This document shows, one piece after another, positions 4,685-48,253 of a stretch of DNA of 64,000 nt. Under the pieces are notes generated by a model that worked only from the letters and a program-made list of their open reading frames with translations, had not been told where the DNA came from and did no database searches. Each line of letters starts with the position of its first letter. The stretch's first letter is position 1. Source of the DNA: Escherichia coli (GTDB lineage: Bacteria > Pseudomonadota > Gammaproteobacteria > Enterobacterales > Enterobacteriaceae); NCBI RefSeq assembly GCF_003334765.1, contig NZ_QOWT01000007.1, one strand, 5' to 3'. Both the position numbers and the translations under genes were made by a program.

Positions 4685-4809
4685 ATTCGGGATGTCCATA
4701 AAATGCGCCACCGTGTTAGGGTGGCGCGTGCCCTGCTTTTCTTTATATTACACGTTCATCTGTCGATGACGTATTTATGTCACCATCAGGTCATACAACC
4801 TGATTAAAA

Positions 4810-6694: not shown

Positions 6695-8200
6695 TTACTC
6701 CTGATTCACGCGATTAAGCTTGCCCACAGCGGCAGCCATTAACACTTCCTGGGTGGCCTGCTCACGAGTAAATTCCCCGCTGAGATGCCCTTCATGCATG
6801 ACGATGATGCGATCGCTCATGCCTAATACTTCTGGCATCTCCGATGACACCAGAATGATGCTCAAGCCATCGGCTTTGAACTGGTTAATCAGTTGATAGA
6901 TCTCTTTTTTCGCGCCGACATCTACGCCACGGGTAGGTTCATCAAGGATCAACACTTTGGGGCGTGTCATCAGACCGCGGGCAATCGCCACTTTTTGCTG
7001 ATTGCCACCGGAAAGCAGACCAATTGCCTGTTCCATCGACGGAGTTTTCACATTAAACAGACGAATGAAATCACTCACAGCCTGCTGTTCATCGGCATGC
7101 TTCAAACTGCCGCCAGCGCGGCTGAAGTAGCGCAGCGCTGTCAGCGACATGTTCTCTTTTACTGACATGCCCAACACTAAACCGTCACGTTTACGGTCTT
7201 CGGAGATATACACAATGCCGTTTGCCAGGCCATCCTGCGGTGAACGGGTAACGACTTCATGCCCATCCAGGGTGACGTAACCGCTGGTGCGCGGTAGTGC
7301 GCCGTAGAGCACTTTCATCAGTTCGGTACGACCTGCGCCCATCAAACCAGAGACGCCAAGAATTTCGCCTTTGCGTAAAGTAAAAGAGACATCGTTAACG
7401 CCAGGTCCGCAGAGATTATCGACTTTCAGGCGGATATCTCCCGGCGCTTTGTCCAGGTGCGGATATTGATCTTCCAGCTTGCGACCCACCATCATCTCAA
7501 TCAGCGAATCTTCGGTCAGTGATGCCACTTCGCGCTCAGCAATAAATTGCCCATCACGAAAAACGGTAACGTCATCGCAAATCTCGAAGATTTCTTTCAT
7601 GCGGTGGGAGATATAGACAATACCGCGGCCTTGCGATTTCAGCTCGCGGATGACGCGGAACAGGGATTCGGTTTCGGTATCGGTCAGCGCATCGGTCGGT
7701 TCATCCATAATGATGACTTTCGACTCAAAGCTCAGCACTTTGGCGATTTCAACCATTTGCTGGTCACCGATGGAAAGATCGCCCACCAGCTTGTCGCTTT
7801 TAAAGCGCAGGTTAAGTTTAGCCAGCAATTTATCCGCTTCGGCATACATGGTTTTCCAGTCAATTTTGCCAAAGCGATTAACAAACTCACGACCGAGGAA
7901 AATGTTTTCGGCAATGGTCAACTGCGGGATCAGGTTCAGTTCCTGATGGATAATCCCAATCCCGGCTTCCTGGGAAGATTTTGGCCCGGTAAATGTCGTT
8001 TCTTTCCCCAGCCATAAAAGCGTACCGGCATCGCGAGTATAGATGCCAGTAAGCACTTTCATCATGGTGGATTTACCCGCGCCGTTTTCGCCCACCAGCG
8101 CCATCACGCGGCCCGGATAGACATTTAACGCTGCGCCCGAGAGGGCTTTTACGCCCGGGAAGGCTTTATCGATGCCTTTAAGCTGAAGTAATGCTTCCAT
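6695..8200 (-). CDS. rbsA: Ribose ABC transporter ATP-binding protein (duplicated ABC domains)
   Basis: ORF track 501 aa; Walker [10 protein letters not shown] and a second ABC domain. Confidence 0.95.
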
Positions 8201-28309: not shown

Positions 28310-30139
28310 ATGTGTGGAATTGTTGGCGCGATCGCGCAACGTGATGTAGCAGAAATCCTTCTTGAAGGTTTACGTCGTCTGGAATACCGCGGATATGACT
28401 CTGCCGGTCTGGCCGTTGTTGATGCAGAAGGTCATATGACCCGCCTGCGTCGCCTCGGTAAAGTCCAGATGCTGGCACAGGCAGCGGAAGAACATCCTCT
28501 GCATGGCGGCACTGGTATTGCTCACACTCGCTGGGCGACCCACGGTGAACCTTCAGAAGTGAATGCGCATCCGCATGTTTCTGAACACATTGTGGTGGTG
28601 CATAACGGCATCATCGAAAACCATGAACCGCTGCGTGAAGAGCTAAAAGCGCGTGGCTATACCTTCGTTTCTGAAACCGACACCGAAGTGATTGCCCATC
28701 TGGTGAACTGGGAGCTGAAACAAGGCGGGACTCTGCGTGAGGCCGTTCTGCGTGCTATCCCGCAGCTGCGTGGTGCGTACGGTACAGTGATCATGGACTC
28801 CCGTCACCCGGATACCCTGCTGGCGGCACGTTCTGGTAGTCCGCTGGTGATTGGCCTGGGGATGGGCGAAAACTTTATCGCTTCTGACCAGCTGGCGCTG
28901 TTGCCGGTGACCCGTCGCTTTATCTTCCTTGAAGAGGGCGATATTGCGGAAATCACTCGCCGTTCGGTAAACATCTTCGATAAAACTGGCGCGGAAGTAA
29001 AACGTCAGGATATCGAATCCAATCTGCAATATGACGCGGGCGATAAAGGCATTTACCGTCACTACATGCAGAAAGAGATCTACGAACAGCCGAACGCGAT
29101 CAAAAACACCCTTACCGGACGCATCAGCCACGGTCAGGTTGATTTAAGCGAGCTGGGACCGAACGCCGACGAACTGCTGTCGAAGGTTGAGCATATTCAG
29201 ATCCTCGCCTGTGGTACTTCTTATAACTCCGGTATGGTTTCCCGCTACTGGTTTGAATCGCTAGCAGGTATTCCGTGCGACGTCGAAATCGCCTCTGAAT
29301 TCCGCTATCGCAAATCTGCCGTGCGTCGTAACAGCCTGATGATCACCTTGTCACAGTCTGGCGAAACCGCGGATACCCTGGCTGGCCTGCGTCTGTCGAA
29401 AGAGCTGGGTTACCTTGGTTCACTGGCAATCTGTAACGTTCCGGGTTCTTCTCTGGTGCGCGAATCCGATCTGGCGCTAATGACCAACGCGGGTACAGAA
29501 ATCGGCGTGGCATCCACTAAAGCATTCACCACTCAGTTAACTGTGCTGTTGATGCTGGTGGCGAAGCTGTCTCGCCTGAAAGGTCTGGATGCCTCCATTG
29601 AACATGACATCGTGCATGGTCTGCAGGCGCTGCCGAGCCGTATTGAGCAGATGCTGTCTCAGGACAAACGCATTGAAGCGCTGGCAGAAGATTTCTCTGA
29701 CAAACATCACGCGCTGTTCCTGGGCCGTGGCGATCAGTACCCAATCGCGCTGGAAGGCGCATTGAAGTTGAAAGAGATCTCTTACATTCACGCTGAAGCC
29801 TACGCTGCTGGCGAACTGAAACACGGTCCGCTGGCGCTAATTGATGCCGATATGCCGGTTATTGTTGTTGCACCGAACAACGAATTGCTGGAAAAACTGA
29901 AATCCAACATTGAAGAAGTTCGCGCGCGTGGCGGTCAGTTGTATGTCTTCGCCGATCAGGATGCGGGTTTTGTAAGTAGCGATAACATGCACATCATCGA
30001 GATGCCGCATGTGGAAGAGGTGATTGCACCGATCTTCTACACCGTTCCGCTGCAGCTGCTGGCTTACCATGTCGCGCTGATCAAAGGCACCGACGTTGAC
30101 CAGCCGCGTAACCTGGCAAAATCGGTTACGGTTGAGTAA
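28310..30139 (+). CDS. glmS: Glutamine--fructose-6-phosphate aminotransferase
   Basis: ORF track 609 aa; N-terminal MCGIVGAI (Ntn Cys2) and two SIS domains. Confidence 0.97.
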
Positions 30140-30165
30140 TAAATGGATGCCCTGCGTAAGCGGGG
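30104..30165. other. attTn7 (unoccupied): TnsD recognition region in the glmS 3' end plus insertion point about 23-25 bp past the stop
   Basis: Established positional relationship of attTn7 to the glmS C-terminal codons; the glmS-pstS spacer (30140-30452) contains only a terminator and the pstS promoter, with no Tn7 ends or tns genes. Confidence 0.6.
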
Positions 30166-30175
30166 CATTTTTCTT
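30146..30175 (+). terminator. glmS Rho-independent terminator
   Basis: Hairpin ATGCCC-loop-GGGCAT followed by TTTTTCTT directly after the glmS stop (30137-30139). Confidence 0.8.
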
Positions 30176-30346
30176 CCTGTTATGTTTTTAATCAAACATC
30201 CTGCCAACTCCATGTGACAAACCGTCATCTTCGGCTACTTTTTCTCTGTCACAGAATGAAAATTTTTCTGTCATCTCTTCGTTATTAATGTTTGTAATTG
30301 ACTGAATATCAACGCTTATTTAAATCAGACTGAAGACTTTATCTCT

Positions 30347-30386
30347 CTGTCATAAAACTGTCATATTCCTTACATATAACTGTCAC
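30347..30386 (+). promoter_or_regulatory. Tandem Pho boxes (PhoB binding sites) of the pstS promoter
   Basis: CTGTCATAAAACTGTCAT and TTACATATAACTGTCAC: direct repeats of the CTGTCAT-type 7-mer with 4-bp spacers, about 65-105 bp upstream of the pstS ATG. Confidence 0.85.
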
Positions 30387-30434
30387 CTGTTTGTCCTATT
30401 TTGCTTCTCGTAGCCAACAAACAATGCTTTATGA

Positions 30435-31493
<1,059 letters not shown>

Positions 31494-31576: not shown

Positions 31577-33429
<1,853 letters not shown>

Positions 33430-33572: not shown

Positions 33573-34385
<813 letters not shown>

Positions 34386-34399
34386 TTCAGGAGTGCGTT

Positions 34400-35125
34400 A
34401 TGGACAGTCTCAATCTTAATAAACATATTTCCGGCCAGTTCAACGCCGAACTGGAAAGTATCCGCACGCAGGTGATGACCATGGGCGGCATGGTGGAGCA
34501 GCAGCTTTCTGATGCAATCACCGCGATGCATAACCAGGACAGCGATCTGGCGAAGCGCGTCATCGAAGGCGACAAGAACGTCAACATGATGGAAGTGGCG
34601 ATCGATGAAGCCTGCGTGCGCATTATCGCCAAACGTCAGCCGACGGCGAGCGACCTGCGACTGGTTATGGTGATCAGTAAAACCATTGCCGAGCTGGAGC
34701 GTATTGGCGACGTGGCGGACAAAATCTGCCGTACTGCGCTGGAGAAATTCTCCCAGCAGCATCAGCCGTTGCTGGTAAGTCTGGAGTCGCTGGGCCGTCA
34801 TACCATCCAGATGCTGCACGACGTGCTGGACGCGTTCGCGCGGATGGACATTGACGAAGCGGTACGTATTTATCGTGAAGATAAAAAAGTCGATCAGGAA
34901 TACGAAGGTATTGTTCGTCAACTGATGACCTACATGATGGAAGATTCGCGTACCATTCCGAGCGTACTTACTGCGCTGTTCTGCGCGCGTTCTATCGAAC
35001 GTATTGGCGACCGCTGCCAGAATATTTGTGAGTTTATCTTCTACTACGTGAAGGGGCAGGATTTCCGTCACGTCGGTGGCGATGAGCTGGATAAACTGCT
35101 GGCGGGGAAAGATAGCGACAAATAA
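34400..35125 (+). CDS. phoU: Phosphate signalling regulator PhoU
   Basis: ORF track 34382..35125; start placed at [22 protein letters not shown] (241 aa). Confidence 0.93.
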
Positions 35126-48109: not shown

Positions 48110-48253
48110 GCTTAATGGTCCATTATGAATACAAGAGTAATCATTTACTGGAATGATGGACAGACTAAAGCGGCTAAAAGTTCGATTCAGACAAGCTTAT
48201 TACAACTTTTTTACATTTTATTGTGAAATTGGGTCGCGTTTCATACGATTCGG

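Follow-up and report, generated by a model that had tools for sequence, protein, structure and literature searches.

The DNA between glmS and pstS raises two questions: what drives expression of the pst operon, which encodes the high-affinity phosphate transporter, and how much of the spacer between the attTn7 site and pstS takes part in that control. Here we addressed both in a 64-kb stretch of Escherichia coli DNA (hereafter the window, to which all positions refer unless stated). The initial annotation of this stretch placed two tandem 18-bp PhoB sites at 30347-30386, in the place of a -35 element, and read them as the mark of a phosphate-starvation promoter under PhoBR control. It also took the DNA that separates attTn7 from pstS to be regulatory rather than spare. 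The locus is already known: it is the pstS promoter itself, one of the most thoroughly studied activator-dependent promoters of bacteria, and not a relative of it. We consider it close to certain that it drives the pstSCAB-phoU operon as a sigma-70 promoter dependent on PhoB, with a sequence identical to that of K-12. Its features and those of its surroundings are collected in Table 1.

Table 1. Features of the glmS-pstS region and the pst operon, in window coordinates.
Feature	Position	Strand	Sequence, basis or remark
glmS, upstream neighbour	28310-30139	+	stop codon 30137-30139; open reading frame and RefSeq annotation of identical DNA
glmS intrinsic terminator (hairpin, then T run)	30145-30170	+	11-bp stem with 6 G-C pairs; inverted repeat I1
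Upstream conserved block	30214-30290	+	cross-genus alignment; contains the inverted repeat, U1 and U2
Imperfect inverted repeat	30214-30228		GTGACAAACCGTCAT in K-12; ATGACAATCTGTCAT in most genera
U1, weak Pho-box-like 18-mer	30246-30263	+	CTGTCACAGAATGAAAAT; starts 101 bp upstream of box 1
U2, weak Pho-box-like 18-mer	30268-30285	+	CTGTCATCTCTTCGTTAT; starts 79 bp upstream of box 1
Pho box 1, promoter-distal	30347-30364	+	CTGTCATAAAACTGTCAT; two half-sites; perfect consensus
Inter-box spacer	30365-30368	+	ATTC, 4 bp; holds the four half-sites in the 11-bp period
Pho box 2, promoter-proximal, at the -35 position	30369-30386	+	CTTACATATAACTGTCAC; first half-site non-consensus
Fifth, weak half-site-like heptamer	30391-30397	+	TTGTCCT; same 11-bp register, abuts the -10
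-10 hexamer	30397-30402	+	TATTTT; 10 bp 3' of box 2; invariant in the 42-species alignment
Shine-Dalgarno sequence of pstS	30443-30447	+	AGGAG; block 30442-30455 at least 95% identical in 42 species
pstS, periplasmic phosphate-binding protein	30453-31493	+	NCBIfam NF008171, 746.6 bits (cut-off 339); RefSeq annotation
pstC	31580-32539	+	open reading frame; above NCBIfam equivalog cut-off
pstA	32539-33429	+	open reading frame; above NCBIfam equivalog cut-off
pstB	33612-34385	+	open reading frame; above NCBIfam equivalog cut-off
phoU	34400-35125	+	open reading frame; above NCBIfam equivalog cut-off

The segment 30347-30386 reads CTGTCATAAAACTGTCAT-ATTC-CTTACATATAACTGTCAC in the letters of the window, and both boxes lie exactly where they had been annotated. 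The letters first given for box 1 agree with the DNA; those given for box 2, TTACATATAACTGTCAC, are 17 nt long and drop the first C, at 30369. The boxes resolve into four half-site heptamers, CTGTCAT at 30347, CTGTCAT at 30358, CTTACAT at 30369 and CTGTCAC at 30380, all on the + strand and spaced with an exact period of 11 bp. A consensus Pho box consists of two direct 7-bp repeats resembling CTGTCAT with 4 bp of A/T-rich DNA between them; box 1 fits this pattern at all 18 positions and box 2 at 16. The 22-bp tandem was also picked up independently by a repeat finder (family D2). The array starts 106 bp before the pstS ATG, on the same strand as the pst genes. The fifth heptamer continues the register toward the -10; the stretch that spans it (30381-30398) has a score of 10.3 with the PhoB weight matrix described below, and the GTCC within it is at least 95% conserved across 42 species. 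At the phoB promoter, a low-affinity PhoB site over the -10 causes auto-repression (PMC6194859).

The proposal that the boxes take the place of a -35 element also holds up. A consensus scan of the region found no sigma-70 promoter on the + strand, and the hexamers available as -35 at a spacing of 16-18 bp (CATATA, ATATAA and TATAAC) match TTGACA at two of six positions at most. The boxes, which end 10 bp before the invariant TATTTT, therefore stand in for the missing -35. At the level of sequence, the locus has every feature that defines a Pho-regulon promoter. From the promoter geometry, transcription would start at approximately 30409-30411; our literature search returned no mapped pstS transcription start. 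On the other side of the boxes, the attTn7 insertion point presumably lies in or near the glmS terminator, about 23-25 bp past the glmS stop.

We assessed the array against chance in three ways. A degenerate Pho-box consensus, CTGTCATAWAWCTGTCAY, scanned over the 64 kb with up to three mismatches, matched only the two adjacent boxes; shuffled sequences gave a mean of 0.21 matches and reached two in 1 of 100 cases. A tandem score over four half-sites reached 25 of 28 at pstS, the highest of the approximately 128,000 positions on both strands, with 18 at the next unrelated locus; shuffling the 400 bp upstream 2000 times gave no score above 20. The third way was the weight-matrix scan that the initial annotation had proposed as a check. 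The matrix was trained on 57 PhoB ChIP-seq motif instances (Fitzgerald et al. 2023), all of which lie outside the window. Box 1 scored 23.3 bits, the best in the 64 kb, above the maximum of 17.3 bits in 30 whole-window shuffles and above every one of the 57 ChIP sites (at most 21.5 bits), which makes it the best single box when compared with other Pho-regulon sites. Box 2 scored 15.9 bits, third in the window and above the median training site at 14.9 bits. By itself this score falls within the range of shuffled sequence, and box 2 is credible because it is phased with box 1 and conserved rather than by its score alone.

To follow the array across the Enterobacterales, pstS loci were taken from 80 species (L009-L088), picked by PstS protein similarity and thus independently of the promoter. 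A four-half-site array lies 5' of pstS in 80 of 80 species, from Escherichia to Serratia, Yersinia and Biostraticola, with scores of 22-25 of 28. It usually sits 104-129 bp before the pstS ATG. The best array is at -207 in three Phytobacter/Kosakonia genomes (L067, L068 and L069) and at -250 in Yersinia pekkanenii (L062), which therefore have a longer leader or DNA inserted between promoter and gene. In an alignment of the glmS-pstS spacer from 42 species, mean pairwise identity is 0.90 for box 1, 0.90 for box 2, and 0.91 for 30387-30402, which covers the -10 and the gap between it and the boxes. For comparison, unconstrained spacer reaches 0.46 and the 4-fold degenerate sites of pstS 0.60. 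The third half-site (30369-30375) departs from the consensus in all 80 species, as CTTACAT, CGTACAT, CATACAT and other forms in which ACAT is invariant. Conservation of the non-consensus form suggests that the weak match at this half-site is maintained and not accidental. Broad conservation of the pstS site has also been described in 29 gammaproteobacteria (Fitzgerald et al., PMC10294691).

The glmS-pstS spacer (window 30100-30470) is 100% identical to that of E. coli K-12 MG1655, and this identity allows binding and expression evidence to be carried over from MG1655, whose coordinate equals 3941978 minus the window coordinate. The strongest PhoB ChIP-seq peak in the genome (score 38) is at MG1655 3911600, which is window 30378, and the motif instance reported there, TGTCATAAAACTGTCATA, occupies window 30348-30365 (PMC10294691). 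Compared with other Pho-regulon sites, pstS has the highest ChIP enrichment and retains residual binding in high phosphate, where it is the sole PhoB site still detectably bound (PMC10294691). Deletion of phoB takes pstS RNA from 239,097 in wild type to 310, lowers it about 900-fold by qRT-PCR, and reduces sigma-70 occupancy at pstS more than 19-fold, which the authors read as a sign that PhoB activates by recruiting RNA polymerase (PMC10294691). In a separate study, ChIP-exo peaks for PhoB were reported at 3911549-3911584 and 3911629-3911670, and the pstS log2 fold change upon phoB deletion was -7.76 (PMC7657598). These peaks correspond to window 30394-30429 (Peak_6) and 30308-30349 and bracket both boxes. 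PhoBR control of the pst operon is thus borne out by published PhoB occupancy and phoB-dependent RNA on identical sequence: the ChIP-seq, ChIP-exo and RNA data record both the induction and the binding at this site that the annotation predicted. We found no evidence against reading the locus as a PhoB promoter.

In sequence, boxes, -10 spacing and downstream operon, the locus does not differ from the K-12 pstS promoter. The latter (formerly phoS) was reportedly characterised, with its two tandem Pho boxes, by Makino et al. 1988 and Kimura et al. 1989; in the second of these studies each box is said to be functional alone, while a promoter deprived of the distal box is much less active. The promoters of phoA, phoB, phoE, ugpB, phnC and phoH share with pstS the 18-bp box, the TGTCA-type repeats and their 11-bp period, the replacement of the -35, and activation by PhoB~P, whereas pstS has two complete tandem boxes. 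Crystal structures of the PhoB effector domain on DNA and of a PhoB-sigma4-DNA complex, reportedly by Blanco et al. 2002 and 2011 and which we take to be PDB 1GXP and 3T72, offer a physical model of how protomers line up head-to-tail on 11-bp units and of how sigma-70 region 4 is contacted at the -35. They use one Pho box, and the cooperation of two dimers at pstS is outside their scope.

Based on this model, a sequence of events at the locus can be proposed. When phosphate becomes limiting, PhoR would phosphorylate PhoB, and PhoB~P dimers would then bind head-to-tail on the four 11-bp units of 30347-30386, presumably as four protomers. Each protomer would be expected to make major-groove contacts with TGTCA and minor-groove contacts with the A/T-rich spacer, in keeping with the published geometry of PhoB on 11-bp repeats and its reading of the grooves (PMC4447250; PMC4415409). 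The array would lie on one face of the helix and end 10 bp before TATTTT, which would leave the proximal protomer at the place of the -35. Since the promoter lacks a usable -35, this protomer would recruit RNA polymerase through sigma-70 region 4. The two boxes would act as one continuous four-unit array. Box 1 is both a perfect consensus and the highest-scoring PhoB site, in line with pstS being the target that PhoB binds most strongly and the sole target still detectably bound in high phosphate.

The window contains a few other PhoB-like sequences. A published PhoB ChIP-seq site associated with rbsK is present at the expected MG1655 offset, 25 kb from the pstS boxes (TGTCACCATCAGGTCATA, 4778-4795, + strand, 15.0 bits). 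A second match, TGACATAAATACGTCATC (4765-4782, minus strand, 15.3 bits), overlaps it. The rbsK RNA is 1,452 in wild type and 1,701 in the phoB deletion, a difference that is not significant (PMC10294691). The second-highest matrix score in the window, 16.3 bits, belongs to TGTAAAAAAGTTGTAATA at 48198-48215 on the minus strand. This candidate was set aside: its score is within the shuffle range, no ChIP-seq peak is listed near MG1655 position 3893772 or thereabouts, and the match is probably a false positive. For practical purposes, the pstS boxes serve as a positive control for motif scans, with the strongest PhoB site of the genome recovered in the right place, and they confirm the ordinary E. 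coli K-12 character of the window.

The second question concerns the DNA upstream of the boxes, for which the boxes themselves say little: box 1 and box 2 are regulatory, and their 40 bp are uninformative on the approximately 200 bp that precede them. Within E. coli, these two parts of the spacer have very different distributions. Box 1 and the DNA that follows it up to the ATG (106 bp) occur at 95% identity or more in 5423 of 5426 complete genomes, and the 172 bp directly 5' of box 1 (30175-30346) in only 3066. About 43% of complete genomes have other DNA in place of the stretch that runs from the glmS stop to box 1. In every genome inspected this DNA is an lpf operon, for long polar fimbriae, which brings its own glmS terminator (the exchange loci listed are L001, L002, L006, L008, L089 and L090). 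The location of lpf between glmS and pstS is already described (PMC2608844). In strains with the island, homology to K-12 breaks off at 30140/30141, 1-2 bp beyond the glmS stop, and picks up again exactly at box 1 (30343-30348). The junctions among the 5426 genomes are of the K-12 type in 3066, the lpfO113 type in 1479 (27%), the O157 type in 355, and other types in about 520; thus, at least three different sequences abut box 1 in natural E. coli. Past the junction, seven aligned sequences vary only in box 1 and in the 4-bp spacer, which occurs as ATTC, AAAC or AAAT within the species, and everything from box 2 to the ATG is invariant.

These natural replacements bear directly on the claim that the region is regulatory. 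E. coli O157:H7 carries an lpf island and a variant box 1, GTGTCATCAAACTGTCAC. Its pstS is still induced 47-fold in low phosphate, with a 15.7-fold dependence on phoB (PMC3978041). Since a strain with the island retains phoB-dependent induction of pstS, PhoB control does not require the DNA that separates attTn7 from box 1.

One part of the upstream DNA is nevertheless conserved, and the strongest alternative to a promoter limited to the boxes builds on it. According to this alternative, the whole spacer from glmS and attTn7 to pstS is regulatory, and the block at 30214-30290 is an auxiliary PhoB-binding element that tunes pstS in the manner of phoE. We regard this as possible but rather unlikely. 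The phoE promoter is said to carry an inverted upstream Pho box approximately 100 bp above its core box (reportedly Tommassen et al. 1987), and the block resembles that element in position, as does the inverted box of the lpfO113 junction described below. In favor of the alternative, the block is conserved across many genera: mean pairwise identity is 0.83 for U1, whereas the flanking spacer reaches 0.46 and the 4-fold sites of pstS 0.60. It still stands next to pstS in 10 species in which glmS is not adjacent. U1 and U2 are separated by 22 bp, as are boxes 1 and 2. Matrix matches of at least 7.5 bits recur at fixed offsets, -100 in 45 of 80 species and -78 in 36 of 80, on the + strand only and in the orientation of the core boxes, and in several other genera the upstream units reach 10-13.6 bits.

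The evidence from K-12 and its relatives points the other way. The K-12 block has matrix scores of 8.8, 7.7 and 8.7 bits (8.8 for U1 and 8.7 for U2; the weakest ChIP site has 7.1), at a level where 51 positions in the window score 8 bits or more, and U1 and U2 contain one good TGTCA half-site each. No ChIP-exo PhoB peak was reported over the block, MG1655 3911688-3911764 (PMC7657598). The likeness to the phoE element lies in position, and the pstS units of K-12 are weak. The segment is also missing from the roughly 43% of E. coli genomes with a replaced spacer, O157:H7 among them, and the other approximately 120 bp of spacer (30171-30213 and 30291-30346) are conserved no more than neutral sites. 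The claim that the region is regulatory and not spare therefore survives in part: it holds for the boxes and may extend to the block conserved across genera, and it does not hold for the segment as a whole, which many E. coli lack. For the block alone, an auxiliary and non-essential role in PhoB binding is a tentative suggestion from sequence conservation, and one that we doubt more than we favor. An IHF-bent loop linking the block to the core boxes was considered and rejected, as inspection by eye found no full WATCAANNNNTTR match in 30290-30320. Our literature search on extra or upstream Pho boxes at pstS returned nothing relevant, although the block may already have been described.

A far less probable reading is that the TGTCA array serves some other role, either as the target of another OmpR-family regulator or by supplying the ATGACA -35 of a divergent minus-strand promoter. 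The complement of box 1 does form a sigma-70-like match on that strand, ATGACA-17-TAAAGT (30364-30336). However, 1.0 such match is expected by chance in the region, and a promoter there would reach nothing beyond the antisense of glmS. We rejected this candidate as a chance-level match with no downstream gene. An RNA element fares no better: compared with Rfam under permissive E-values, 30000-30600 gave chance-level hits only (mir-4869, a tombusvirus element and RsmY), far below gathering scores; the small open reading frames in the spacer (21-54 aa) also have no support. The PhoB matrix fits the site better than it fits any of its training sites, and both the sigma-70 and the RNA signals at pstS depend on phoB. 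Finally, there is next to no chance that the repeats are accidental or a relic direct repeat with no present function: apart from the general abundance of short A/T-rich repeats in intergenic DNA nothing speaks for this, and it is contradicted by the shuffle and weight-matrix statistics, by the presence of the array in 80 of 80 species while its flanks vary, and by the homology of island strains that restarts exactly at box 1, and it is refuted by the published occupancy and phoB dependence on identical sequence.

With the PhoB-dependent promoter as the preferred reading of the boxes, the exchange upstream of them can be considered in its own right. At the lpfO113-type junction of E. coli ZYB62 (L090, about 6787-6804), a strong inverted Pho box, TGTCATCTTTTTGTCATG, scores 18.8 bits on the minus strand. 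It sits 72 bp upstream of box 1, between lpfD-O113 and pstS. The 172-bp junction that contains it matches 1479 E. coli genomes, with the box itself read only in ZYB62. This candidate box could bind PhoB and might affect pstS or drive antisense transcription into lpfD. That the lpfO113 island brings its own strong Pho box where it replaces the conserved block is a further point in favor of an upstream element.

One speculative view, which we think improbable, is that the stretch from glmS to box 1 is neither spare nor regulatory throughout, but a regulatory cassette that can be exchanged. In many Enterobacteriaceae it would hold an auxiliary module of weak phased units, and E. coli lineages would have swapped it as a whole for lpf islands that abut box 1, the lpfO113 version carrying a Pho box of its own. 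If the upstream sites do bind PhoB, PstS expression would have a different set-point or different kinetics from one lineage to another; since Pst signals to PhoR, the difference would extend to the entire Pho regulon, and lpf and pst expression might be coupled as well.
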